From a virus (Duplodnaviria; Heunggongvirae; Uroviricota; Caudoviricetes), in the IMG/VR virus record IMGVR_UViG_2802429229_000003: a stretch of DNA of 41,511 nt; one strand, 5' to 3'. Of this stretch, positions 18,839-30,149 are shown in pieces (position 1 is the stretch's first letter; each line of letters opens with the position of its first letter). The notes below the pieces were generated by a model that saw only the letters and a list, made by a program, of their open reading frames with translations, searched no databases and had not been told where the DNA came from. A program made the position numbers and the translations under genes.

Positions 18839-18975
18839 ACAGCCTTGCTTTATGAATAAAACGCACCCCAGCAGCCAGTGCTACTGGGGACGGAGGTGTT
18901 GCTGGTAAAGTTAGGTATTGGATCAATGAGTGAGTCAACATAATATTAAACTCACAATTATAAATCAGCCATATA

Positions 18976-20433
18976 TTAGGAGCGCCAAAAAAAACCTGAA
19001 AACAATATAATAACAGGATAAATTTCAAGGCGACCAAGAATCATAGCTATGCACATTAAACATTTTGCAATGTCATTAAGTACTCCGAATGACGATGCAG
19101 TAGCCCCAAAACCTAATCCCATATTATTAATACATGCAGCCACTGTTGCAAATGATGTAAGAAAATCATATCCCATACCATTTAACACCAGTATAAAAAA
19201 CACCGTAAAGAGAGTATAAAGAAAAAAGAAACTCCATACAGACCTCATTACACGATCTGTAACTATCTTCCCTCCTACATTTACACTCAACAACGCTCTG
19301 GGATGAGAAAGCTGATTTATCTCGTGTTTGCTTTGTTTGAAAAGTATAAGAAATCGAAGTGACTTAATTCCACCACAAGTTGAACCTATACATCCCCCAA
19401 AGAAACTTGACAACAGCAAAAATACTATCGTGTGCGTGGGCCAACTTGCATAATCCTGCGTAGCTAAACCATTATCAGTGAGCATGGAGCTGGCAAGAAA
19501 AAACGAATGAATAAAACTTCCATGCAAGTCATACATACCTATATGCCAGACCTGGAAAGAGGTAACAATGATCACCCCTAAGGCTATTAACAGAAAGAAA
19601 CGAAGTTCAATATCTCTGATTAAAGGTTTTATCGTTTTCCTGCTAATAACAATATACCAAAGAGTGAAGTTGAAAGCCGATAGCAGGGAAAAAGAACCAG
19701 CCACCAGCTCAACCAAATAGTTATTAAAATATCCGATACTCTCGCTATGAGTTGAGAAACCACCAAGCGAAACTGTGGAAATCCCGTGACAAATAGCATC
19801 AAACAAAGGCATTCCTGCAAGTCTATAACAGACAATACAAGCAATACCTAATAAAGAATAAGTTATCCACAGTGTCCGTGACGTATCGGCCAGGCGGGGA
19901 GTGAGTTTGTCATCCTTAAATGGCCCCGGCATTTCTGACTGATAAAGCTTTGCACCACCAATACCCAATAATGGCAATACAGCAACCGCCAGAACAATAA
20001 CTCCTAAACCACCTATAAAATTTAACTGTGACCGATAGTACAAATATGCCCGAGGTAATGAACTAACATCATCAATTACAGTTGCTCCTGTTGTTGTTAT
20101 TCCAGAAACCCCTTCAAACAGAGCATCAATGAACGTTAAATTAAGTTCTGAGTCAATCCATAAAGGGAATGCACTAATAACAGAAAACAAAATCCAAAAC
20201 ATTACAATTATAATAAACCCATCACGGGTACGTAATTGAATGCCAGATTTCTTAGTTGTATACCACGCTCCGCCACCAATGCAAAAAAATATAACGAAAG
20301 TTATAAAGAAAACGAACAGGCTTTTTTCTTTATAAAACAATGCTACAACCATTGGTGGCAACATTGAAAGACTATAGAGCCAAACCAGGAACCCACACAT
20401 ATGAGTAACAACTCTTACATGAGATGTATTCAT
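18976..20433 (-). CDS. trkG: Trk system potassium uptake protein TrkG (Rac prophage moron), 485 aa
   Basis: Polytopic membrane protein with repeated GGxK and Gly-rich pore-loop motifs; sequence from MNTSHVRVVTHMCGF matches my recollection of TrkG. AT-rich relative to flanking phage genes. Confidence 0.85.
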   Translation of the reverse strand: MNTSHVRVVTHMCGFLVWLYSLSMLPPMVVALFYKEKSLFVFFITFVIFFCIGGGAWYTTKKSGIQLRTRDGFIIIVMFWILFSVISAFPLWIDSELNLTFIDALFEGVSGITTTGATVIDDVSSLPRAYLYYRSQLNFIGGLGVIVLAVAVLPLLGIGGAKLYQSEMPGPFKDDKLTPRLADTSRTLWITYSLLGIACIVCYRLAGMPLFDAICHGISTVSLGGFSTHSESIGYFNNYLVELVAGSFSLLSAFNFTLWYIVISRKTIKPLIRDIELRFFLLIALGVIIVTSFQVWHIGMYDLHGSFIHSFFLASSMLTDNGLATQDYASWPTHTIVFLLLSSFFGGCIGSTCGGIKSLRFLILFKQSKHEINQLSHPRALLSVNVGGKIVTDRVMRSVWSFFFLYTLFTVFFILVLNGMGYDFLTSFATVAACINNMGLGFGATASSFGVLNDIAKCLMCIAMILGRLEIYPVIILFSGFFWRS

Positions 20434-20570
20434 ATCTAAATATTCTTTCAATTATAACCACCTTGCTGCAATATTATGATTATACTGTATAAAATTTAAC
20501 TCCTCTTAGATCTTACTTCACTGTTCCTTATGAAACAATCATCAAAATGAATCATATTGTAGTTAAGATT

Positions 20571-21035
20571 TTACTTTAAACACTGCTCGGTTATGTATTG
20601 CTGAGCACCTTCAAGTTGGGCCTGCATCATTACCAGTCGTTCCCGGAGGGTGAAATAATCCCGTTCAGCGGTGTCTGCCAGTCGGGGGGAGGCTGCATTA
20701 TCCACGCCGGAGGCGGTGGTGGCTTCACGCACTGACTGACAGACTGCTTTGATGTGCAACCGACGACGACCAGCGGCAACATCATCACGCAGAGCATCAT
20801 TTTCAGCTTTCGCATCAGCTAACTCCTTCGTGTATTTTGCATCGAGCGCAGCAACATCACGCTGACGCATCTGCATGTCAGTAATTGCCGCGTTCGCCAG
20901 CTTCAGTTCTCTGGCATTTTTGTCGCGCTGTTCTTTGTAGGCGATGGCGTTATCACGGTAATGATTAACACCCCATGACAGGCAGACGACGATGCAGATA
21001 ACCAGAGCGGAGATAATCGCGGTTACTCTGCTCAT
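20571..21035 (-). CDS. Rz: Spanin inner-membrane subunit Rz
   Basis: 154-aa [24 protein letters not shown]... closely matching lambda Rz as recalled; follows the endolysin gene. Confidence 0.85.
20630..20815 (-). CDS. Rz1: Spanin outer-membrane lipoprotein Rz1, embedded in the +1 frame of Rz
   Basis: 61-aa ORF with lipobox LVVVGC and proline-rich [18 protein letters not shown], entirely inside Rz. Confidence 0.8.
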
Positions 21036-21508
21036 ACCTCAATCTCTCTGACCGTTCCGCCAGCTTCTTTGAATTTTGCAATCAGACTGTCAGCCTTATG
21101 CTCGAACTGACCATAACCAGCGCCCGGCAGTGAAGCCCATATATTGCTGCAACGGTCGATAGCCTGACGGATATCACCGCGATCAATCATCGGCAAAGCG
21201 CCACGCTCTTTAATCTGCTGCAGCGCTACAGCATCCTGACTTTCTGGAGAAAAATCTTTCAGGCCAAGTTGCTTGCGGTAGGCATCCCACCAGCGTGAAA
21301 GAAGCTGGTAACGTCCAGCGGCTGTTGATTTGAGTTTCGGATTTAGCGTGACAAGTTTGCGGGGGTGATCGGAGTAATCAGTGAACAGTTCGCCACCGAC
21401 AATAACATCATAACCGTGATTTCTGGTTTTCTGCCGTCCGTTATCTGTTCCTTCTGACCATGCCACCATATCAAGGAAAGCTTTACGCTGGGAATTAAGT
21501 GTCTGCAT
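21032..21508 (-). CDS. R: Endolysin R (lambda-type transglycosylase), 158 aa
   Basis: [50 protein letters not shown] matches lambda R closely as recalled. Confidence 0.85.
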
Positions 21509-21511
21509 TAA

Positions 21512-21853
21512 TTACTCCTTATGGGCACCGAACTTGTTACCGATGACCCTCATTGCCGCACCACGAATAGCATCAACACCAATCAGCCCCACCCCACCAC
21601 CAATGGCAACAGAAAGTGATTTAGGCCATCCGACATACTCAAGCGCGGATGCAAAGGTCAGCGTCAGAGCACCACAAAGCAGAATCTCAAGCGTTTTTCG
21701 TTTCCAGCCGCCGCCACCGCCAAAATAGGCAATGCGCAAACCAGCCATAATAATTGACATAACCACTGCACCCAGCGGCGTATCTCCACGCCACCAACTT
21801 TGTAAGAGTTCCAGTAAGTCAGGCCAGGAATGAGGGGCATTGTGCATTTTCAT
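21512..21853 (-). CDS. Holin with Met-Lys-Met dual-start motif (non-lambda holin family)
   Basis: GGAGGUGA RBS, then AUG AAA AUG (starts at 21853 and 21847); hydrophobic segments and charged C-terminus; immediately upstream of R. Confidence 0.65.
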   Translation of the reverse strand: MKMHNAPHSWPDLLELLQSWWRGDTPLGAVVMSIIMAGLRIAYFGGGGGWKRKTLEILLCGALTLTFASALEYVGWPKSLSVAIGGGVGLIGVDAIRGAAMRVIGNKFGAHKE

Positions 21854-21951
21854 AAGCCTCACCTCCGAGAGTTCGGATGGTGCTAAGTGTAAGATTCAGG
21901 CTCTCAGGCTTGCTAACAAGAAGTCGAGGATGTTTCCGGAGCCTAACAACG

Positions 21952-21976
21952 AAAAAGCCCCGGGACATGCCGGGGC
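21952..21976 (-). terminator. Intrinsic terminator (GCCCCGG stem plus U5) about 100 nt upstream of the holin gene
   Basis: Minus strand GCCCCGG-cauguc-CCGGGGC followed by UUUUUCGUUGUU. Confidence 0.55.
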
Positions 21977-22070
21977 CAGATGGAGTGCCAGATTAAGCTT
22001 CTGGCGGTATATACTCGTGTTTGATATCGTTAAATCGCCAAAAGTAACAATTCAAACAAAGAGGATTTTT

Positions 22071-22232
22071 ATGTCTGAAAAAAACAAACCACAAGGTGAA
22101 AATAAACCTCAGCAACCCGTGGCACCAAAACCAACTCCAACACAAAGTACTACAGACTTTGCTACACGTCGTGTTTTTGTTGGAGATTCTGCCGACTCAG
22201 TCATTGAACATATAAAAAAACAGCCGAGATAA
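22071..22232 (+). CDS. Hypothetical small protein, 53 aa, Pro/Gln-rich (MSEKNKPQGENKPQQPVAPKPTPTQSTT...)
   Basis: ATG at 22071 with AGAGGA RBS at 6-nt spacing; convergent with and overlapping the 3' end of the 189-aa gene by about 30 nt. Confidence 0.3.
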   Translation: MSEKNKPQGENKPQQPVAPKPTPTQSTTDFATRRVFVGDSADSVIEHIKKQPR

Positions 22233-22770
22233 ACATCGCCGCTACCGGAGCAAGGATGGTATACATCCTTGCTTTATCGAGACTCGTGCGGATTTTCTCA
22301 TTTTCCAACAGTAACTCTCTTGCTGTATCACTCAAGTCAACAAGGCGATACCTTCGTATAAGCGGCAATAACTTATCAGGTCCTAAATATCCTGCATCAG
22401 CGAATATTTTAAAGCTCGAGGGCTCCATATCCTTATATTTTTCATGATATAGATGATCAGGAGGGGCATTGATCAGGCCCCTAACCTTCACAGATAAACC
22501 AGTACATACCAAGTAAATGGCGCACCATGTCCATAGTAATGTAAATGTGGTAATTCCGGCGGTGAGAAAATCGAAATTAGTTTTCTGTGTCAGCAATAAA
22601 AAAGATGAACCAATTCCAACAATCTGAATGTTCAGAAGTTTGTATCCATTCTCAACATTGGTTTTGTTAGAAAGATGAATCTCTCGTATCGTCTCTTCCC
22701 CTTGTTTTTCAAGATAATCGACGAGCTCATCATCTACTCCTAAAAAATAATCTTTAGGTAGTTCTCTCAT
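22201..22770 (-). CDS. AT-rich moron: hypothetical membrane protein, 189 aa
   Basis: ATG at 22770 with GGAGGUGAG RBS; hydrophobic segments around aa 60-110 and 170-189; sampled 60-nt line about 33% GC. Confidence 0.6.
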   Translation of the reverse strand: MRELPKDYFLGVDDELVDYLEKQGEETIREIHLSNKTNVENGYKLLNIQIVGIGSSFLLLTQKTNFDFLTAGITTFTLLWTWCAIYLVCTGLSVKVRGLINAPPDHLYHEKYKDMEPSSFKIFADAGYLGPDKLLPLIRRYRLVDLSDTARELLLENEKIRTSLDKARMYTILAPVAAMFISAVFLYVQ

Positions 22771-22798
22771 CTCACCTCCACATCCTGTACTGAAAACA

Positions 22799-22807
22799 AT
22801 TTTACCA
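22799..22807 (-). promoter_or_regulatory. Candidate extended -10 promoter element (TGgTAAAAT) upstream of the 189-aa moron gene
   Basis: Minus-strand TGGTAAAAT about 30 nt upstream of the ATG at 22770; no convincing -35 hexamer. Confidence 0.3.
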
Positions 22808-22877
22808 GAATGTCTCGATTCTAGGTATTCCGCCAGGAATCGCGCTCCAGAAATGAAACATCAGGTTCGCCAGTACC

Positions 22878-22910
22878 AGAAACAACAAAACCCGCTCAAT
22901 GGCGGGTTCT
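22878..22910 (-). terminator. Terminator-like hairpin downstream of the putative Q gene (candidate tR'-type terminator)
   Basis: Minus strand AACCCGC-cauuga-GCGGGUU followed by UUGUUGUUUCUGG; about 85 nt after the Q stop. Confidence 0.45.
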
Positions 22911-22991
22911 GGTAAAGTTCATGCGCTTGGTTCGCCTCGCGATACAGCTTTGCGAAGCATACCGGAATTGAAGCAGTTTATGCGTAAAAAA

Positions 22992-23534
22992 TCAAGCTAT
23001 TTTTTGAGCAAATGATTCTCGCATGGGAATATATAGGGCATACTCAGCAACAGCCAACCAATTAGCAATTCGCTTTTCGCATGTGCTAAAACACCACTCA
23101 GGATGTGCATCATTTAGCAATTCAGCCATTTTGCGCTTAGTCATCCCCCGTCCTTCATACCGTTGCCGGAGGACACTAATCAATCCAGGATGCTCTGCCA
23201 GCACCTCACTTATGACTCTATCAATACATAACGCCTCTGCATCAGTACAATGCGCCAGCCAGGTCTTTTGCTTGCCATTGATCATCTCTCGCAAAAACGC
23301 TTCCAGCTCAGGTTTCTCTATTCCCGCTTTTTTCATCCTGCGCAGGGCTTCATTGACGGCTGTTTTCGTCAATTTTTTGGATGCCAGCAACTGGTTAAAC
23401 ATATTTCCCGTCTTACCGCCGCCAATATACGACCAGCGCCCCCACATGCGCAGTTTTCCCTGAATCCAGACACTTTCCAGCGTGGTGAGACGAAGGTGTT
23501 CCCCGCTTTTGCCTGTATTTGTTGGGTAAATCAT
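22992..23534 (-). CDS. Putative late-gene antiterminator Q, about 180 aa
   Basis: Last gene of the nin region before the lysis cassette; ATG at 23534 overlaps the upstream stop (ATGA) with GGAGAAAGGAAGG RBS. Assigned by position; no sequence similarity to lambda Q recalled. Confidence 0.5.
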   Translation of the reverse strand: MIYPTNTGKSGEHLRLTTLESVWIQGKLRMWGRWSYIGGGKTGNMFNQLLASKKLTKTAVNEALRRMKKAGIEKPELEAFLREMINGKQKTWLAHCTDAEALCIDRVISEVLAEHPGLISVLRQRYEGRGMTKRKMAELLNDAHPEWCFSTCEKRIANWLAVAEYALYIPMRESFAQKIA

Positions 23535-23821
23535 AAATAACCTTCCTTTCTCCAGATTTCTTGTGTGCGAAAAACACCTTCTGCATGCATCAGGCGTAAT
23601 TCTTCTTTGGTGTAATCGCTGGTTTTTACCCGCCCGTCGATTAAATCGTGGCATGAGCTACAGGCAATCGCTGCCTGCATATCGTGTGGTTTTGTCGCTG
23701 TTCCGCACGTCCCCGCCAGCCTGTAATGCGCCAGCACAGATGTTTCGGGATTGTGATTGCAGTAGCCAGGAATTCTGACGGTGCACATCTGCCCCCGCGC
23801 CGCTTTACGTAAATCCACCAT
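23531..23821 (-). CDS. nin-region protein, 96 aa, Cys-rich (YbcO-like)
   Basis: Paired cysteines (CNHNPETSVLAHYRLAGTCGTATKPHDMQAAIACSSCHD); size and position as for ybcO-type genes upstream of Q. Confidence 0.5.
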   Translation of the reverse strand: MVDLRKAARGQMCTVRIPGYCNHNPETSVLAHYRLAGTCGTATKPHDMQAAIACSSCHDLIDGRVKTSDYTKEELRLMHAEGVFRTQEIWRKEGYL

Positions 23822-24420
23822 TACGCAAACTCCAGTAACTGTGCGGCCACATTTTCGACTTCCTCCGGAGAGGAAAATTTACGGAACAGGATCCAGTTCC
23901 ACAGCACATTCAGTACAGATTTATAAACCTGCTGAAACTCGGTTTCGTCCATGTTCGCAAAAGCGATGGATTTCGCCAGACGCCCATGGCTACCGTCCGG
24001 ATAAAAATGTTCGGTGTAAAATCCAGCCTGAATGGTTACCCACTCGCGAAAAGCCTCAAACGACTTTAGCAATGCCGTATCCCGGGTTCTGCGTGTCGCA
24101 ACTGTATTCAGATATTGCTCTGCGGCATCACTCAGGGCTGGCGTGTGTTCCCGACCAACTGATTCGCACAGGTAATCAACGAAACCAGACAGCAGTTCTC
24201 GTTCGCGAGGCGTGATCGCCCCACCGACCGGAGTCCAGTAATCGAATCCCAGTTGCAGGAGTTTGAAAAAACGCTTGTGGAATGCGTAGTTACGCACACG
24301 CTTAAAGTCTGCGTGTATCCACTCACCTATTTTGATTTGATGCAGAAAATCGCAACTCTCCGGCGTCGCCGGGAGAAGTAAACCAGAAGAAGTTTGTTTG
24401 ACCAGTTGTATATGCGCCAT
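23821..24420 (-). CDS. nin-region hypothetical protein, 199 aa
   Basis: ORF in the delayed-early operon upstream of Q; no motif recognised. Confidence 0.5.
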   Translation of the reverse strand: MAHIQLVKQTSSGLLLPATPESCDFLHQIKIGEWIHADFKRVRNYAFHKRFFKLLQLGFDYWTPVGGAITPRERELLSGFVDYLCESVGREHTPALSDAAEQYLNTVATRRTRDTALLKSFEAFREWVTIQAGFYTEHFYPDGSHGRLAKSIAFANMDETEFQQVYKSVLNVLWNWILFRKFSSPEEVENVAAQLLEFA

Positions 24421-24694
24421 TTCTCAATCTCTCGATGGCGCAGTGCAGCAGATGCCAGTTGTTCAGGCTGACGTATAAAGTATAAATAAACTGGTTCCAG
24501 TGTAAAGCCCCCACATTGATGGAATAAAAATCAAACAATAGATTGCTGGGATAAAATACAACGCTTATTATTAAAAGCGGTTAGACAAATTAAATTTTAA
24601 TGTTATGCAAATCTGCCAGATCAGCATAATATCTCATTTGAAAACCGCTGAAATAACAATCCTATCAGGATTAATCATATTAAGGTGAGTAAAT

Positions 24695-24781
24695 ATGGAA
24701 AACAACAAATCTGCACATTACGCTCCTTTTTTATCTGTAATACTTTTTGTTTTTTGCTGTGTATGGGCATTATTTTTATAA
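24695..24781 (+). CDS. Candidate small hydrophobic peptide, 28 aa (MENNKSAHYAPFLSVILFVFCCVWALFL)
   Basis: ATG at 24695 preceded by AAGGUGAG RBS at 5-nt spacing; single hydrophobic helix; in an AT-rich intergenic region. Below the ORF track cutoff. Confidence 0.3.
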   Translation: MENNKSAHYAPFLSVILFVFCCVWALFL

Positions 24782-24858
24782 AAATATTCACAGATAAAAT
24801 AAACTCGCCGAATCAGGTTAAGTGTGGGTGCGTTGAGGATGCCTGACACATCAGAGGC

Positions 24859-24880
24859 GGCGAGGGATTTCTCCCTCGCC
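24859..24880 (-). other. Stable 9-bp GC-rich hairpin at the 3' end of the hok transcript
   Basis: GGCGAGGGA-uuuc-UCCCUCGCC, about 10 nt after the hok stop. Confidence 0.5.
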
Positions 24881-24889
24881 TGGTCACTC

Positions 24890-25045
24890 TTACTCCTCAG
24901 GTTCGTAAGCTGTGAAGACAGCGACCTCCGTCTGACCGGTTCGGATTCGCACCTCGCAGAGGTCTTTCCTCGTTACCAGTGCCGTCACTATGACGGTTAA
25001 ACAGATGACAATCAGTGCGACTAACATCGCCTTTTGCTGCTTCAT
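24890..25045 (-). CDS. hok: Hok/Gef-family type I toxin, 51 aa
   Basis: MKQQKAMLVALIVICLTVIVTALVTRKDLCEVRIRTGQTEVAVFTAYEPEE: N-terminal TM helix and conserved RKDLCEVRIRTGQTEVAVF core. Confidence 0.85.
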   Translation of the reverse strand: MKQQKAMLVALIVICLTVIVTALVTRKDLCEVRIRTGQTEVAVFTAYEPEE

Positions 25046-25102
25046 AGCCTGCTTCTCCTTGCCTTCCGGCGCGTAAGAGGCTAACCTACATGTGCAAAGC
25101 AT
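24890..25102 (-). CDS. mok-like in-frame upstream extension of hok, 70 aa
   Basis: In-frame ATG at 25102 gives MLCTCRLASYAPEGKEKQA then the Hok sequence, the same arrangement as chromosomal mok/hok loci. Confidence 0.5.
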   Translation of the reverse strand: MLCTCRLASYAPEGKEKQAMKQQKAMLVALIVICLTVIVTALVTRKDLCEVRIRTGQTEVAVFTAYEPEE

Positions 25103-25260
25103 GAAATTGGCCTCAGATTAATGTTAAGCGTCTTGCCGGACGCGTAATGTTATCTGGGGCTTTTCTCTATCTGCCGTTGGTGTTCATGCCCGAGGCAGAT
25201 AGCCTCAAGCACCCGCAGCAATTCTACTTAACCCCCGTCACCTCGCCAATATAAAATCAA

Positions 25261-25479
25261 TCAGAAAGGCGATCCATAAGAACAACAGCAAGACAATAAA
25301 TTGCCATTACAGCCGCAATAGCTAGCGCACATTTGAGAACCAGCACGACAACCTCCTGTATTGGGCGTACACCAGTCCTGATAAATATGAGGATGTCTCG
25401 TCAGTGATTCAATGCAACTATTGGGTATAGTTTCTGTGATTTTGTTCTGTAGAAATGGAACACAACAACCAGTCACCAC
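25261..25479 (-). CDS. Doubtful small Cys-rich ORF, about 72 aa (11 Cys)
   Basis: GTG at 25479 preceded by AAGGAAG; lies between the KAP terminator and the hok locus. Could be non-coding hok leader. Confidence 0.15.
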   Translation of the reverse strand: MVTGCCVPFLQNKITETIPNSCIESLTRHPHIYQDWCTPNTGGCRAGSQMCASYCGCNGNLLSCCCSYGSPF

Positions 25480-25640
25480 CAGCACTTCCTTAAATGCTCT
25501 AAGTCAGAAACAAGCCAACATTTTAGTCCGCTTTGAGCGAAGAGCGGACGCTCGCATCTGTCCCAACACACTGAGGGCTTCACGAACACCTAGGTGTACT
25601 CGTCAACTGGGAAAAAGTCAGATTATCTGCGTAAGTTTCA

Positions 25641-25693: not shown

Positions 25694-28600
25694 CTATGTA
25701 TCTGAGCCAAACATAGAGCGCCGCCTTGTTATTTTATAATAAGTGGGATTTTCATTATCCACCTCAAAATCAGAGAAGAAGTGGTTATCTCTTAATGCTG
25801 TTAATAAACTTTGATTAGTTGAATCAACTTCAATTTTAGGTTTGCCTCGCCCCAAAATTTTACTGAACTCCGATAAACCAAGCAGATCAAGATACTCTTT
25901 GCAAGTCGTCTTACTCAAATCCTTACCCGGCAACAAAGCGATTAGCAGTGCTATTTTATTCTGCATATTCAGTCCCTCTGCGACAAACAGGTTTTTTAGT
26001 AACGGTTCAGAAACATCATTAGGACTTGCTATCAATGCTGATATATCCTGTATTGCTCGACTCAAGATGAGCGACTGAGTAGAGGTTCCCCAAGTTTTAT
26101 AAGATGACGTCAAGATTAGAAGTTCATCTGGTTTAAAATTATTTTCTAAAATATAGTCATTAACGACCTGAGAGTAATTCTTACTATAAATAGCCAACGG
26201 AGTTTTAACAAACTCGAGTAGCTTAACTTTCAAATCATCATCAACTTTCCAAGAAAGTATTGATATAGCCTCATCCAAAATAAAGTTATCAATCGTCATT
26301 AATTCAACGTATGCCCTGATATTCTTATGAATATAATAGGAAAGTTGCTCTGAATAGTTATCTCGTATGAAATTAAGTGGCGCAACATTCATACGAATAA
26401 TATTTTTATCCACTAATATTTTGAACTTATCACTCGCGATATTACTAGCGCTAAAGGATGTTTTACAAATAATATTTAGTGAGCAAATTAATTTTTCATA
26501 TTTATCATTTGATAAATCATTACAGATAACAATCGATTTAAATAATTTACCTTTAAGCTCGTTATCAATATTAATATTTTGAAAATTCAGGTCTACATCA
26601 GTTCTATTGATAAATTCGATAAGTGAGTCATCCAGTCCATCAACATGTTCAAAATAAGAGACAATATTTTCCTCAGAGCACACTGCTCTATCTTTATCCA
26701 ACAAAGATGACCATAAAGATTCGCTCTCAACCTCACTCAGAGATGTCACGAAAGTTTGCAAAGCGTTTATATACTGGCCTTTTTGTTCATCAGATATTCC
26801 CTCATTATTAAGAACGGATAAAACAATGGATTCATCATCCACGATTGAACCATCACAACTAGATAAAACCATATCCAGATAGTCCCTAATATGGTTATTA
26901 ACATAACTAGCCAAGGGAGAATCAGGTTGTGACATCACTAGTGTATAGTTCTTATGGCGAATATCATCTTCACTATTAAGCGTGTAAACCTTACTCAGCA
27001 TTAAGGTCAGGTTGGAAAAATTAATATCATAAAGTGAATGCTGGTAAACCGCATCAAAGAGTACTTTATTTGCGTTTTCAAATTTAATACTGACAAAAGA
27101 GACGTTAAGCAACTTAAAACCACTAATTAATTTGTCAACCTTCGGTTCTGATATTGCTAAATAACCTGCCGAATCAGAGATGTAATCAGTCAGACAATCA
27201 TCAATATTAATGGCCTCGATGGCGTCATTGGCAGAATAATAAAACGTGCCTATAGAGTAGAGTTTAACCCAATCAGCAGAAAATTCACTCTCTGTCAGCG
27301 CATAAGAAAAAAACTCAGGCCACTGTGTATTTAATCGATTAATGAAGACAGGCTGAGCCCTCTCAGTTTCAAAGTAACCACGAATAAACTCAACTCTTCT
27401 ATCTTTTCTTAGTTGTTTGAATAAACGTTTTATTAAGTTTACCTGGGCTGGCGTTTGAAGCAGATAAGCTAATAAATCAAAATTAAGCGCCTCTTCCTGT
27501 TCAAAATCCACTTCTCGAAGGCGGGCAACGACCAGCTTGGGGTTCTTGAGTTGATAAGTGAACTCTTTGCCTTTTTGATCGGTAATGCTGCGTAAAAACA
27601 TCTTATCAATTCGACTCAGGCTATTTTCATAAAAATAGGTCATATAGTCGGTATAGGTTTCATCAATATAACCATCACGAATAAGGTATTTAAGCAAGTC
27701 AAAATACTCACTGCTTTTTATTTCATTAAAGTCTCTTTCCTCTCCAATTTCATTGGTATAGGTGAGTTTAAATATTTCATCAATGTTTTCTCTAGTTATT
27801 ACTTCTTTAAGTCTTTTGTTTCTAAAATCAACCAAACTTTCTCTTGATCTTGATATAAGCTCATTAATTTCTTCTATTTTACCATTAAATTTATTTTCAA
27901 CACTTTCTTTTCTAGCCGCCCTTCTCTTTGCTATATCAGCTTTCTCAGCCTGATTATAGTGAGGATGATTATTATATCTAGATAATTCCTTATCGTATAT
28001 AGCATCAACCTCCTGACTAGAGTTGAGTATTTCATCATTGATTGCCTCAATCTCTTTTTTTCTATCTCTAATATCTTTTTCTATTTTCTTTATTTCTTCA
28101 ATAATAAGGTTGTCTTTTTCACTAAATATGGTATAAACCATACCTTGATTAAGTTGCAACTCACTAAAATCTCTTGGGAAAATATTCTTATAGGCAATAA
28201 TGGCCAACATTTTATTACAGTCAAGTTCTGTCGTGTTTAATTTGTTATAATAAATTTGAAATTCGTTATAAATATTCTTCAATATTCTCATATCATCAAT
28301 ATATAAAGACATCCCTTGTAGAAATCTTTCATTGAACAACTTGAGAATACCACCACCATCAAAATGTGTGATAAACTGATCGTAAGAGTTAGAACTATCA
28401 ACAACAGGAATAACTGGAATGATATAATCAAAGAATTTGGTTCTATCCTTCGAAATGAAGATATCATCACGAAGCAAGTAAATAAAACGTAACGTCGATT
28501 TCTTGTGCCCTGCTGTGTCCCGTTGAATATTAACCAGTCTGTTAACCTCATGAAGACGTTCAAAGATGTTATTACTATTAAAACGGTCCATGTCTTCAAA

Positions 28601-29326
28601 AACAATGGCATCAGCATCAACGTTCTCGAAAAGGTACAATACTTCATTTAAATATCTATCGAAATAAGACTCGTTACTTTCTTCAAAAATCTCTATTTCA
28701 TTACCCTGTAAATTTATTTTCTTAAGAACATTACGATTCTTTTGGGTTTTTATTAACTTGTAAATGAAAATACAAGATAGGATAGTACATATAAACCCAC
28801 TAATTAAAAGCGTATCGTATTTAGTTGATAATGTAAGTAGTGTCTTTATATTACCTTCAGATAAAAGTGAAACAAACTTTTCCCACTTATTAAATAGCGT
28901 GATATGTAGTATCATAGCGATAAATAACACCGTAAAGATGGTGTTTATCACAATGTTGTTAGTTTTTATTTTTTTCTTTACTTTAAAATGTGTCTGGGGA
29001 ATATCATCAGCATTAATTTGGTGAATTAACTGGTTAAGAACTTTACCTTCTAACGCGGTTTCATTTATATCTTTACTTGGTTCATTAGTTTCAGCTTCCT
29101 CAATCGATCTGAAATGAGCAAGTGAGATATGAACAAACTTTATATTTGAATGACTTTTCTTATAGGATTCGATAAGACTACTTTTTCCTGCGCTATATTG
29201 CCCTGATATCGCAACATTTTTTAGATCGTTATTGGCAAAAACAAAATCTATCGCATTTTTATATACACCCAGCTCAACATCGCTGAACGGCGTTAACTTT
29301 TGAAATTTATAGCTATCATCACTCAT
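25694..29326 (-). CDS. KAP-family P-loop NTPase, 1210 aa, with two transmembrane helices inserted between Walker A and Walker B; AT-rich moron
   Basis: Walker A GQYSAGKSS (aa 42-50, nt 29177-29203); hydrophobic helices at aa ~123-145 and ~172-192; Walker B DAIVFEDMDR (aa 239-248, nt 28583-28612); about 950-aa C-terminal region with a coiled-coil-like stretch. RBS GGGAAGGGA before ATG at 29326. Sampled lines about 25-30% GC. Confidence 0.8.
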   Translation of the reverse strand: MSDDSYKFQKLTPFSDVELGVYKNAIDFVFANNDLKNVAISGQYSAGKSSLIESYKKSHSNIKFVHISLAHFRSIEEAETNEPSKDINETALEGKVLNQLIHQINADDIPQTHFKVKKKIKTNNIVINTIFTVLFIAMILHITLFNKWEKFVSLLSEGNIKTLLTLSTKYDTLLISGFICTILSCIFIYKLIKTQKNRNVLKKINLQGNEIEIFEESNESYFDRYLNEVLYLFENVDADAIVFEDMDRFNSNNIFERLHEVNRLVNIQRDTAGHKKSTLRFIYLLRDDIFISKDRTKFFDYIIPVIPVVDSSNSYDQFITHFDGGGILKLFNERFLQGMSLYIDDMRILKNIYNEFQIYYNKLNTTELDCNKMLAIIAYKNIFPRDFSELQLNQGMVYTIFSEKDNLIIEEIKKIEKDIRDRKKEIEAINDEILNSSQEVDAIYDKELSRYNNHPHYNQAEKADIAKRRAARKESVENKFNGKIEEINELISRSRESLVDFRNKRLKEVITRENIDEIFKLTYTNEIGEERDFNEIKSSEYFDLLKYLIRDGYIDETYTDYMTYFYENSLSRIDKMFLRSITDQKGKEFTYQLKNPKLVVARLREVDFEQEEALNFDLLAYLLQTPAQVNLIKRLFKQLRKDRRVEFIRGYFETERAQPVFINRLNTQWPEFFSYALTESEFSADWVKLYSIGTFYYSANDAIEAINIDDCLTDYISDSAGYLAISEPKVDKLISGFKLLNVSFVSIKFENANKVLFDAVYQHSLYDINFSNLTLMLSKVYTLNSEDDIRHKNYTLVMSQPDSPLASYVNNHIRDYLDMVLSSCDGSIVDDESIVLSVLNNEGISDEQKGQYINALQTFVTSLSEVESESLWSSLLDKDRAVCSEENIVSYFEHVDGLDDSLIEFINRTDVDLNFQNINIDNELKGKLFKSIVICNDLSNDKYEKLICSLNIICKTSFSASNIASDKFKILVDKNIIRMNVAPLNFIRDNYSEQLSYYIHKNIRAYVELMTIDNFILDEAISILSWKVDDDLKVKLLEFVKTPLAIYSKNYSQVVNDYILENNFKPDELLILTSSYKTWGTSTQSLILSRAIQDISALIASPNDVSEPLLKNLFVAEGLNMQNKIALLIALLPGKDLSKTTCKEYLDLLGLSEFSKILGRGKPKIEVDSTNQSLLTALRDNHFFSDFEVDNENPTYYKITRRRSMFGSDT

Positions 29327-29732
29327 TGATATCCCTTCCCAATCTTCACCGAGAGAGCTGGCTTTCGGAGTTAATCAAACAAAATCATGCAGATAAAATT
29401 TCGCCTTATTATAGCAGACACAACTGCAAAGATTAGCTAAAGCCTCGTTGTTTTCTTCATCTATCCCTATAATTTTACACTACAGTTAGCACTTACTATA
29501 CCTGAAAGCTTTGCTCGTAAAGAGCACAATCGCAAGTCAGCAAAGCACGACTTTGCAATCGAGCGCCGCTAAAACAGTGCTGAATCGCTACGACTTAGGC
29601 AGCCATCTTATCGGTTGGCAGATAATTTCTAACTTCCGCTTCTGGCACAAAGCGGACAACCACGCTAGCTCTCCCCTGTGCCAGAAAAATGTCAATTTAC
29701 ATATGAACTAATGCTCTTTGATCTAGTAACGT

Positions 29733-30149
29733 CTATAAATACCGAAGATTTCCTTGATAAAATGCCAGTACACGTTTCATAACTTCACTCTTCCGGCACT
29801 CGCGACAGATTATGTTCTGACGCCTGTCATAGCGGCGTATTTCTCCGTCTGGTAATGACCAGATAAGGTCAGGATCAACCACAACCGTTTTTTTCACCTT
29901 TGCCCTGGATAGTTTTTTGCGGGCGTTTTTCCAATCCTTACGAGCCTGTTCAGACGGGAATAACCCATAGCCAGAGTTGTATACATCGCCACTGGCAACC
30001 AACTCTCTGGCAAGAATGCTCATCAGATATCTTGTCGCACCTGTCTTGGCCTCCAGTTGCCTTAACGTCTCGCGCCCACTCTGGCGTACCAACTCAACAA
30101 CCTGCTCCTTAATTTTTTCACGCTCTTCCTGTGTAAAAACTTTTGCCAT
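29733..30149 (-). CDS. Hypothetical protein, 138 aa, possible winged-helix DNA-binding protein
   Basis: ATG at 30149 with GGAGG RBS; no counterpart recalled in K-12 Rac. Confidence 0.5.
   Translation of the reverse strand: MAKVFTQEEREKIKEQVVELVRQSGRETLRQLEAKTGATRYLMSILARELVASGDVYNSGYGLFPSEQARKDWKNARKKLSRAKVKKTVVVDPDLIWSLPDGEIRRYDRRQNIICRECRKSEVMKRVLAFYQGNLRYL

Follow-up and report, generated by a model that had tools for sequence, protein, structure and literature searches.

The DNA between the antiterminator gene Q and the lysis genes of this prophage carries two real intrinsic terminators of an ordinary lambda-type late-gene switch, with a moron between them. An intact Rac-like lambdoid prophage, with its late operon on the minus strand, makes up the whole 41.5-kb stretch analysed (the window), and the layout is that of a classical moron combined with Q antitermination, that is, textbook lambdoid regulation. 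What appears to be new is the comparative definition of a putative late control site for an uncharacterised Q subfamily, DUF1133. Taken as a whole, we consider probable a model in which hairpin 1 is the terminator tR', the late promoter pR' lies at the Q stop codon, the moron follows tR', hairpin 2 shields the lysis genes S-R-Rz, and Q brings about read-through. The coordinates of all features are collected in Table 1.

Table 1. Features of the late control region and the neighbouring late operon, in the order in which the minus strand is read
Feature	Position	Strand	Basis or remark
Strict-criteria terminator	36032-36008	-	Signature scan
Late-gene antiterminator Q, DUF1133 family, 180 aa, predicted Q21-type fold	22992..23534	-	Pfam, PHROG, PDB profile, AlphaFold
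A-tract AAAAAATAGC, possible UP-element-like sequence	22996..23005	-	Just upstream of the -35; read from sequence
Proposed late promoter pR'	22967..22995	-	Comparison with relatives; predicted +1 near 22960
pR' -35 TTGATT	22995-22990	-	Overlaps the Q stop codon
pR' TG element	22975-22974	-	Ahead of the -10 TTCAAT (22972-22967)
-10-like hexamer TATGCT (family: TAnGCT)	22956..22961	-	Candidate sigma-dependent pause element; could instead be the true -10
Conserved promoter-proximal leader ATGCTTCGCAAAGCTGTATCGCGAGGCG	22933..22960	-	Linked to the Q allele
Hairpin 1 with T-tract: tR', end of the leader RNA	22876..22911	-	Signature scan (22911-22886), fold, conservation
Candidate moron promoter element TGg-TAAAAT, extended -10	22799..22807	-	~22 nt 5'UTR before the ATG at 22770
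Moron gene 1, 189-aa predicted membrane protein	22201..22770	-	phrog_11870, E 6e-108
Moron gene 2, 53-aa hydrophilic protein	22071..22232	+	phrog_14506, E 6e-33
Candidate promoter/operator of the reverse gene, TTGATA-18 bp-TAACAAT, core AACGATATCA	22021..22051	+	Shared block
Small hairpin GCCAGA-N7-TCTGGC	21987..22005	-	Just upstream of hairpin 2; predicted in fold
Hairpin 2 with T-tract	21944..21977	-	Signature scan (21977-21956); moron's downstream edge, about 100 nt upstream of the holin gene
Lysis cassette S (21853-21512), R (21508-21032), Rz (21035-20571)	20571..21853	-	Pfam, RefSeq annotation
Third strong late-strand terminator	18866..18889	-	Signature scan (18889-18866); 87 nt after trkG

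Two intrinsic terminators on the late strand

We scanned both strands of the window for terminator signatures under strict criteria (a stem of at least eight pairs, at least six of them G-C, and a T-rich tail). Four sites were found, all of them on the minus strand, against a chance expectation of 0.2 +/- 0.5 per window in first-order Markov random sequences. Two of the four are hairpins 1 and 2, just where a sequence-only reading of this DNA had placed two terminator-like hairpins on the late-operon strand. Read on the minus strand, the stem-loop of hairpin 1 is CAGAACCCGCC-ATTGA-GCGGGTTTTG, followed by TTGTTTCTGG; it has ten pairs, six of them G-C, folds as RNA with -18 kcal/mol (z = -3.7) and begins 80 nt past the Q stop codon (22994-22992). 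Hairpin 2 reads GGCCCCGG-CATGTC-CCGGGGCT, followed by TTTTCGTTGT, with eight pairs, seven of them G-C, and a fold of -16.4 kcal/mol (z = -2.4). Both are predicted to terminate transcription. The interrupted T-tract of hairpin 1 (TTTTGTTGTTT) counts against the proposed model. The third strong terminator of the late strand stands behind trkG, which is another moron within the late operon. A permissive Rfam scan of 20500-25500 returned no family at hairpin 1, at hairpin 2 or in the leader. The sole match in this interval is sok, at 25040-25214.

Q is a DUF1133 protein with a predicted Q21 fold

Q matches Pfam PF06576 (DUF1133) with an E value of 3e-109 and, much less strongly, the Q21/Q933W-type family PF06530 (28.0 bits, above the cut-off of 26); its PHROG match is annotated as 'anti-termination protein Q-like'. 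A PDB search with a profile of 22 DUF1133 proteins retrieved Q21 chains only (E 1.6e-5). We predicted the structure of Q with AlphaFold2 from an alignment of database homologues (mean pLDDT 74.7), and the top 12 Foldseek PDB matches of the model are all Q21 (probability 1.00, TM 0.55-0.71), with noise after these. The modelled fold of Q is that of Q21, and its antitermination activity is predicted. DUF1133 matches are found in 1742 of 5426 complete E. coli genomes, about a third, and our literature search found no mention of DUF1133.

A candidate late promoter at the Q stop codon

A candidate late promoter, with a non-canonical -10, can be placed by comparison with relatives because 99 of 106 related loci have its conserved cassette behind the DUF1133 gene. 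In the window the cassette runs from the -35 TTGATT through 17 bp to TGc-TTCAAT, and from there through 5 bp to TATGCT, a leader of ~80 nt and the terminator. The combined motif, TTG-17-(TG)nTTnAAT-5-TAnGCT, occurs once per locus in the 99 loci, always downstream of the DUF1133 gene, with about three matches expected by chance in the 1.18 Mb scanned. Among 44 distinct variants, both the TTG exactly 17 bp upstream of TTnAAT and the TAnGCT at a fixed 5 bp from it are present in all, and TG at -15/-14 of the TTnAAT element in 41. Relatives L003, L004, L011 and L014 keep the promoter element as non-coding DNA, with an inserted module between it and Q, and the motif is retained in this way where the module is of the IsrK-C4-antirepressor type; the non-coding copies of L003, L004 and L011 likewise have an A-rich tract before the -35.

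The sequence-only reading had found no convincing sigma-70 pR' between Q and either terminator and held that the promoter could not be placed by eye. Its first point is borne out, as our consensus sigma-70 scan detected no promoter between Q and hairpin 1, and the proposed -10, TTCAAT, which the scan did not call, has T rather than A at the nearly invariant -11. The second point gives way once relatives are compared and the promoter-like element is seen to be conserved in every distinct variant. The sole consensus match near Q, TTGGCT-18-TATATT inside the gene (23057-23028), was considered and rejected: it is not conserved in L010, and in L003 and L004 the block that moves together with the terminator does not include it. 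A search of the promoter spacer (TTTTACGCATAAACTGC) for direct repeats like those of Q21 gave none that was convincing, and no Q-binding repeat could be assigned, a point against the model; one subgroup of relatives only has the Q21 binding-site hexamer TGAGCA/TGAGCC (PMC6606751) in the spacer, a likeness to phage 21.

An unlikely alternative that leaves the layout unchanged makes TATGCT (22961-22956) the true -10 of pR' and puts the start near 22949. On this view the upstream TTG-17-TGnTTnAAT would either bind Q or form a second promoter that overlaps the first, and the pause element would lie further downstream, e.g. TATCGC at about 22944-22939. TAnGCT is closer to the -10 consensus than TTCAAT, which counts against our preferred assignment, and in 44/44 variants it retains the three bases that matter most in a -10, T(-12), A(-11) and T(-7). 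It is also preceded by TGn in most distant relatives, and by our own reading of the alignment several subgroups carry a second TA-starting hexamer 8-11 bp downstream of it. However, no subgroup has a -35-like hexamer 16-18 bp upstream of TAnGCT, TGn is missing before it in the window, L024, L025 and L027, and the invariant TTG at its 17-bp distance goes, together with the TG at -15/-14, with TTnAAT and not with TAnGCT. We prefer TTCAAT as the -10 and TATGCT as the candidate pause element. Against this assignment, the two hexamers are only 11 bp apart; in the late promoters of lambda, 21 and 82 they are further apart.

The moron is a pair of convergent genes

Between the hairpins lie two genes. 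The predicted membrane protein encoded by gene 1 has 104 homologues, nearly all of 189 aa and down to 46% identity. Gene 2, which has the Shine-Dalgarno sequence AAGAGGA, is convergent with gene 1 and overlaps its 3' end by 32 nt; in Citrobacter and Serratia, too, the 189-aa gene has a small convergent homologous ORF beside it, of 55 and 52 aa respectively. Searches of Pfam, NCBIfam and PADLOC gave no match for either protein. The segment has a GC content of 37-41% against about 50% and is absent in most of 80 close relatives, and phages with three different Q families carry the gene pair in the interval from Q to holin.

By definition, a moron brings along a promoter and a terminator of its own (PMC3594210). 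Upstream of the 189-aa gene, GGTAA(A/G)AT is the sole block conserved among the E. coli, Citrobacter and Serratia copies; a conserved GGTAAAAT element, 22-30 nt ahead of the start codon in the three genera, may act as a promoter. Downstream, the moron has a terminator of its own in hairpin 2, and this terminator block also occurs without this cargo. The block at 22021..22051 that may serve as promoter or operator of the reverse gene is kept in the Serratia and Citrobacter copies of the moron and is also present in L003, L042, L110 and L111, ahead of different reverse-oriented cargo genes, where its homology ends at about 22048-22061.

Hairpin 2 and the pre-holin block

About 100 nt separate the end of hairpin 2 from the holin ATG (21853), and our promoter scan found no promoter-like site between hairpin 2 and S. 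The lysis cassette was identified through the RefSeq annotation of the identical region of E. coli D3; S matches Pfam Phage_holin_3_1 and has the lambda-type Met-Lys-Met dual start. A related hairpin occupies the position of hairpin 2 in L003, L004, L042, L107 and L110, with changes that preserve pairing, and the Serratia copy of the moron has a different terminator at the equivalent position. More generally, a late-strand terminator stands ~100-125 nt before S in six non-homologous pre-holin modules, including those of relatives without the moron. Whether the primary partner of hairpin 2 is the moron or the holin cassette is ambiguous, because its block also accompanies other reverse-oriented cargo genes.

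It could also be that hairpin 2 and the neighbouring GCCAGA hairpin form mainly the 3' end of a regulatory or antisense RNA acting on the small reverse gene or on S translation, which we regard as quite improbable. The fold of 22075-21945, a 130-nt segment, contains three hairpins (z = -3.5), the block is conserved beside several different reverse-oriented cargo genes, and the two-hairpin arrangement appears again in Serratia, which like L042 has the GCCAGA stem with loops of 3 to 7 nt. Yet the block holds no late-strand promoter-like site and matches no Rfam family, and unrelated pre-holin modules carry, equally far from S, nothing more than a simple terminator. A terminator at the downstream edge of the moron is the reading of hairpin 2 that we retain.

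The moron lies downstream of the proposed tR'

Hairpin 1 is probably tR' and would close a leader of ~80 nt behind the conserved late promoter, as counted from the predicted start site. A hairpin with a T-run is present in 56/56 distinct cassette variants, 37-127 nt past the predicted +1 (most at 55-111), and the terminators of these variants have at least eight unrelated stem sequences. Homology among the variant stems is too low for alignment. Homology of the window to the 80 close relatives ends just past the T-tract of hairpin 1, at 22876-22887, in 36 loci and at 22930-22933, with a different terminator beyond, in 32; no breakpoint falls within the conserved promoter-proximal leader. The recombination breakpoints cluster directly after the T-tract or after about +28. 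In the O157:H7 prophage L002 exactly the same promoter-leader-hairpin block is followed by three tRNA genes.

The sequence-only reading had taken the genes between the hairpins for an inserted moron, with which their GC content agrees, and had offered two explanations for the flanking terminators. The one in which the moron and lysis genes are insulated and depend on Q read-through fits the data. The other, that the moron landed in a 6S-RNA-like leader, is not supported: the promoter-leader-hairpin 1 unit is intact and conserved as a block, the breakpoints avoid the promoter-proximal leader, and in L004, L040 and L107 both terminators stand 230 nt apart with no moron between them. The contrast that it drew with the single tR' of lambda turns out to be uninformative, several late-strand terminators between Q and holin being the rule in the relatives examined.

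The same idea can be put in historical form, the moron having split a once-continuous 6S-like leader, with hairpin 2 as the former tR' and hairpin 1 brought in by the insert, or vice versa. Such a history would suit an insert bracketed by two terminators, and the three moron-less loci can be read as having one long leader with two terminators, but we judge it highly improbable: hairpin 1 is conserved with the promoter in nearly all relatives regardless of the downstream DNA, the boundaries of the insert fall beyond the hairpin 1 T-tract, and in Citrobacter and Serratia phages with other Q types the same moron stands after a tR'-like terminator. The insert is thus placed downstream of the proposed tR' and outside the leader.

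That hairpin 1 merely ends the early operon after Q, with the late genes driven from elsewhere, is equally improbable, for although it lies so close to the last early gene (80 nt) and the promoter candidate is non-canonical, L003, L004, L011 and L014 keep the promoter-leader-terminator block despite the module that separates it from Q, and a Q-type antiterminator requires a dedicated promoter-proximal loading site (PMC6606751).

Proposed regulation

Late transcription in lambda, 21 and 82 follows an established scheme, in which pR' is succeeded by a sigma-dependent pause element and tR', and Q permits read-through (10.1101/651190; PMC6606751; PMC7547250). In the prophage studied here, the sequence at the Q stop codon (TTGATT, 17 bp, TGcTTCAAT) would act as a constitutive sigma-70 promoter, whose transcripts would meet the -10-like TATGCT at about +1, presumably a sigma-dependent pause and Q-loading site, and would in the absence of Q stop at hairpin 1 as an RNA of ~80 nt. 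The forward gene of the moron would be transcribed from the conserved -10 that precedes it, and this RNA would cross the small reverse gene in antisense and stop at hairpin 2. In the lysogen, hairpin 2 would block both moron-promoter transcripts and any tR' read-through from S-R-Rz. After induction, Q-modified RNA polymerase would pass hairpin 1, hairpin 2 and the trkG terminator into the lysis and morphogenesis genes.

It is conceivable, though on balance doubtful, that DUF1133 is a functionally distinct branch of the Q21 fold, with a loading site unlike those of the three studied paradigms, a leader that is possibly an sRNA, and a pre-holin terminator selected as a fail-safe. If so, the late promoter of this branch would have a non-canonical extended -10, TGnTTnAAT, and, with a pause element only 11 bp downstream, no known Q-loading pause would lie closer to its promoter. 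Hundreds of E. coli lysogens would produce the leader constitutively, possibly as a trans-acting small RNA like StxS, and the terminator that all module variants have ~100 nt ahead of holin would protect the lysis genes from moron transcription. The site definition may serve as a template when antitermination is studied in vitro and when short late-leader RNAs are sought in these prophages. That cargo between Q and the lysis genes is packaged between terminators bears on how toxins, tRNAs and trkG are kept separate from lysis.

Relation to known systems

The nearest likeness is to the Q cassettes of phages 21 and 933W, with which the prophage shares the predicted Q21 fold, the above-cut-off match to PF06530 and the order Q, promoter, -10-like element, short leader, intrinsic terminator and late genes. 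Its Q is, however, only about 15% identical and belongs to a separate Pfam family, the spacer has no clear direct-repeat pair, T stands at -11, and the second -10-like hexamer follows unusually closely.

The proposed model resembles the pR'-6S RNA-tR' unit of lambda in several predicted features: the late promoter would be constitutive, a sigma-dependent pause element would lie near +1, the leader would be short and terminated, and read-through into S-R-Rz would require Q. The holin, with its Met-Lys-Met dual start, is of the lambda family as well. The 6S leader of lambda is 194 nt, whereas the leader here would be about 80 nt. The Q proteins belong to unrelated families (10.1101/651190).

In Stx phages, too, cargo lies between tR' and the lysis genes and depends on Q read-through upon induction, as predicted here, and in lysogens the pR' transcript that ends at the terminator forms a short, stable RNA, StxS (PMC7547250). 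The cargo here is in contrast an uncharacterised gene pair, and the leader has no Rfam match. Like the morons of HK97 and HK022 (PMC3594210), the unit described here is an insert of deviant GC content in a late operon, with a terminator and a predicted promoter of its own. It differs in consisting of two convergent, overlapping genes and in a downstream terminator block that also occurs beside other cargo or none.

We considered and rejected two identities suggested by Salmonella prophages. The leader is not Salmonella IsrK/IsrJ, as IsrK forms, with a C4 RNA and an antirepressor, a separate module between Q and the late cassette in some relatives; nor is Gifsy-1 AntQ a DUF1133 protein, being annotated as 82-type, and the Q of Gifsy-2 is a 265-aa protein of another kind. 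An IsrK-C4-AnrP-type module directly follows the DUF1133 gene in the close relatives L003, L004, L008 and L011 and is absent from the window. This module, described from Gifsy-1 (PMC4825925), resembles our cassette in that it opens with a promoter that shares its -35 with the Q stop codon and with a terminated RNA of 77 nt, but it is an inserted immI-like module rather than the late promoter, and in L003, L004 and L011 the late cassette follows after it.

Identity of the Q protein

The sequence-only reading assumed that the gene preceding the first hairpin encodes Q, and this premise is borne out by family, profile and fold comparisons. The 180-aa product (23534-22992) matches PF06576 (DUF1133) with an E-value of 3e-109 and also scores above the threshold of PF06530, the Q21/933W antiterminator family (10.1101/651190). 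A profile built from 22 family members has phage 21 Q as its sole match in the PDB (E = 1.6e-5), and the twelve best Foldseek matches of the AlphaFold2 model (pLDDT 75) are all Q21 chains (probability 1.00, TM 0.55-0.71), with no significant match to other structures in that search. Because of these Pfam, PDB-profile and model-fold matches, we regard Q as a distant antiterminator of predicted Q21 fold. No paper in the literature that we searched mentions DUF1133.

A DUF1133 gene with 95% identity lies on a contig binned as 'Candidatus Nanosynbacter' (MAG; locus L012), and PP818812.1, 'Actinobacillus phage vB_Apl-pPE4', shares 93% DNA identity with the E. coli late promoter block. These two assignments look like products of mis-binning or contamination, or possibly reflect unexpected hosts.

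A conserved candidate late promoter

We compared relatives of Q encoded at 25 loci in different species (protein identity 50-96%) and on 80 viral contigs (92-100%). Almost every one is followed 3' by a compact element, TTG(nnn), 17 bp, (TG)n-TTnAAT, 5 bp, TAnGCT, with a hairpin and T-run 37-127 nt (mostly 55-111 nt) after the predicted start. The core motif occurs only once per locus, in the orientation of Q, in 99 of 106 loci, against a chance expectation of about three matches in the 1.18 Mb scanned. All 44 distinct variants have TTG at exactly 17 bp upstream and the fixed 5-bp gap, and 41 have TG at -15/-14. The final codons of the Q gene contain the -35 in 192-aa variants; the window and the related loci L003, L004, L011 and L014 have it as non-coding yet conserved sequence, preceded by an A-tract.

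We read TTG-17-TGnTTnAAT as a candidate pR' of the extended -10 type with a start near 22960, and TAnGCT as a putative sigma-dependent pause element; the leader RNA would be about 70-85 nt long. Alternatively, TAnGCT rather than TTnAAT could be the promoter -10: it keeps T-12, A-11 and T-7, and TTnAAT has a T at -11. A consensus promoter scan called neither hexamer. Whichever of them is the -10, the late promoter, which had seemed impossible to place by eye, now comes down to a 40-bp conserved element.

Late-region features of the window
Feature	Position	Strand	Sequence or basis
Candidate late -35	22995-22990	minus	TTGATT; overlaps Q stop codon
Candidate extended -10 TG	22975-22974	minus	comparative motif
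TTCAAT	22972-22967	minus	comparative motif
TATGCT	22961-22956	minus	comparative motif
Hairpin 1 (tR' candidate)	22911-22886	minus	CAGAACCCGCC ATTGA GCGGGTTTTG, then TTGTTTCTGG
Putative moron promoter element	22807-22799	minus	TGgTAAAAT; conserved upstream block
Moron gene 1	22770-22201	minus	189-aa predicted membrane protein, phrog_11870
Moron gene 2	22071-22232	plus	53-aa hydrophilic protein, phrog_14506, good Shine-Dalgarno
Hairpin 2	21977-21956	minus	GGCCCCGG CATGTC CCGGGGCT, then TTTTCGTTGT
Terminator after trkG	18889-18866	minus	strict scan
Further terminator-like site	36032-36008	minus	strict scan

Among the terminators that follow the promoter motif, at least eight unrelated stem sequences occur; what is conserved is position, not sequence. 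Aligned with its 80 close relatives, the window loses homology at 22876-22887, directly past the T-tract, in 36 loci, and at 22930-22933, where another terminator follows, in 32. From these breakpoints we infer that linkage to the Q allele extends from the -35 to about +28 and that the terminator is an exchangeable module; as expected, this extent would fit a promoter with its Q-loading and pause region. The entire block (23005-22876) is present at 93% identity in L003 and L004, not beside Q but 3' of an inserted IsrK / C4-RNA / ORF6N-antirepressor module. Its presence there, away from Q, shows that the promoter-leader-terminator block is an autonomous unit.

The inserted module, which in close relatives separates the DUF1133 gene from the late promoter block (L003 1675-2487, L004 1692-2502, L008 3575-3776, L011 3575-3768) and includes the C4 antisense RNA, is P1 immI-like, as in Gifsy-1. 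In L008 a TTGACT-18-TATATT promoter has its -35 overlapping the Q stop codon, and the Rfam match to IsrK has its 5' end (3588) 7 nt past this promoter. In E. coli O157:H7 F6321 (L002, 3256-3505) an identical promoter-leader-hairpin 1 block is followed by tRNA-Ile, tRNA-Arg and tRNA-Arg, at the site where the window carries the moron.

The two hairpins and the gene pair between them

Both hairpins noticed by eye were recovered in place by reading the sequence and by pattern scan. As RNA, hairpin 1 folds at -18 kcal/mol (z = -3.7) and hairpin 2 at -16.4 kcal/mol (z = -2.4). A loose terminator pattern gave 7 sites in 4 kb versus 3.8 +/- 2.0 in shuffles, a count that is not significant alone. A strict scan, requiring stems of at least 8 pairs (6 or more of them G-C) and a T-rich tail, gave four sites in the whole window, all on the late strand and including both hairpins, versus 0.2 expected from random sequence.

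The two moron genes are convergent, their 3' ends overlapping by 32 nt, and the GC content of the segment falls to 37-41%. Homologues of the 189-aa protein number 104 across Enterobacterales and are constant in length; neither protein has a match in Pfam, NCBIfam or PADLOC. Serratia and Citrobacter phages carry the same pair (22071-22770 in the window; L194-L199) between Q and the holin gene, with a recognisably homologous small convergent ORF and a preceding tR'-like terminator; their Q is of the Q21 (PF06530) or lambda (PF03589) type and their holins belong to other families. The only conserved block upstream of the 189-aa gene is GGTAA(A/G)AT, 22-30 nt before the start codon. From the recurring pair, the preceding terminators and this block, we conclude that the insert is a mobile two-gene moron, in the sense of PMC3594210, with its own putative promoter element. 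Its insertion point lies after tR', not within a 6S-RNA-like leader as had been suggested.

Across E. coli, Citrobacter and Serratia prophages the pair stands beside three different Q families. RefSeq starts the small gene at a GTG (22017; 71 aa), but comparison points instead to the ATG at 22071 (53 aa).

Hairpin 2 as a probable junction terminator

The block containing hairpin 2 (22061-21866) has 83-94% identity with L003, L042, L110 and L111, where it adjoins different reverse-oriented cargo genes and keeps the hairpin with pair-preserving changes. Homology stops at about 22048-22061, at a TTGATA-18-TAACAAT element directed away from the holin gene S. In the moron-less loci L004, L040 and L107, tR' and a related hairpin 2 (GACCTCGGC ATTT GCCGGGGTT TTTTT) are only 230 nt apart. 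Six non-homologous modules stand upstream of S among the 80 loci encoding this holin, and in each of them a terminator on the late strand lies about 100-125 nt before the start of S; the layout is also found in phages of Citrobacter and Serratia whose holins belong to other families. At its end the Serratia moron copy shares the window's small GCCAGA hairpin, and the terminator after it has another sequence. The promoter scan found no promoter-like site between hairpin 2 and S.

The simplest reading is that hairpin 2 is a junction terminator. It would end moron transcripts and, in the lysogen, block read-through into the lysis genes; Q-modified polymerase would ignore it and would also have to pass the terminator after trkG.

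Late-strand intrinsic terminators stand about 60-125 nt before the holin start in every upstream module variant examined (L111-L190; L197 4335-4358; L194 4052-4072) and are not homologous in sequence. In moron-less relatives, tR' and the pre-holin terminator are separated by about 220 nt of conserved sequence (L004 2630-2850; L024 after its tR'), at the start of which stand a Shine-Dalgarno-like sequence and an ORF of two codons (ATG AAA TAG).

The late switch of the window follows the standard Q scheme of lambda, 21 and 82 (10.1101/651190; PMC6606751), differing only in Q subfamily and promoter details, and its cargo placement matches the arrangement known from Stx phages (PMC7547250). We infer its start site, pause, termination efficiency and Q dependence from sequence and comparison.

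Prophage setting

E. coli strain D3 is 100% identical to the window over the 1.3 kb compared, and by RefSeq annotation the corresponding 41.5 kb is an intact Rac-type lambdoid prophage adjoining ttcA. Its genes run intR, xisR, ralR, recET, kilR, sieB, then the repressor/cro region and replication genes; these are followed by DUF1367, DUF1364, DUF1133, two hypothetical genes, holin, endolysin and Rz, and then by trkG, a ParB-like gene, terminase, and head and tail genes. The Rac prophage of E. coli K-12 is defective; the window looks like its intact form. The late operon, which runs along the minus strand, includes trkG (18866-20433 segment, minus) between Rz and the ParB-like/terminase genes. 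With a strong terminator 87 nt past it, trkG is a second terminator-bounded cargo gene that would lie in the path of Q-modified polymerase.

Within the early region, a gene at 26484-30116 (minus) for a 1210-aa protein annotated only as hypothetical separates the replication genes from hok. At 24890-25214 (minus) there is a hok/sok type I toxin-antitoxin locus, in which an Rfam sok match of 111 bits lies next to a Hok-like ORF (MKQQKAMLVALIVICLTVIV...). RefSeq apparently leaves this locus unannotated in the identical strain; the Hok/Gef gene that it annotates there, at window 25711-25836, is a different one.
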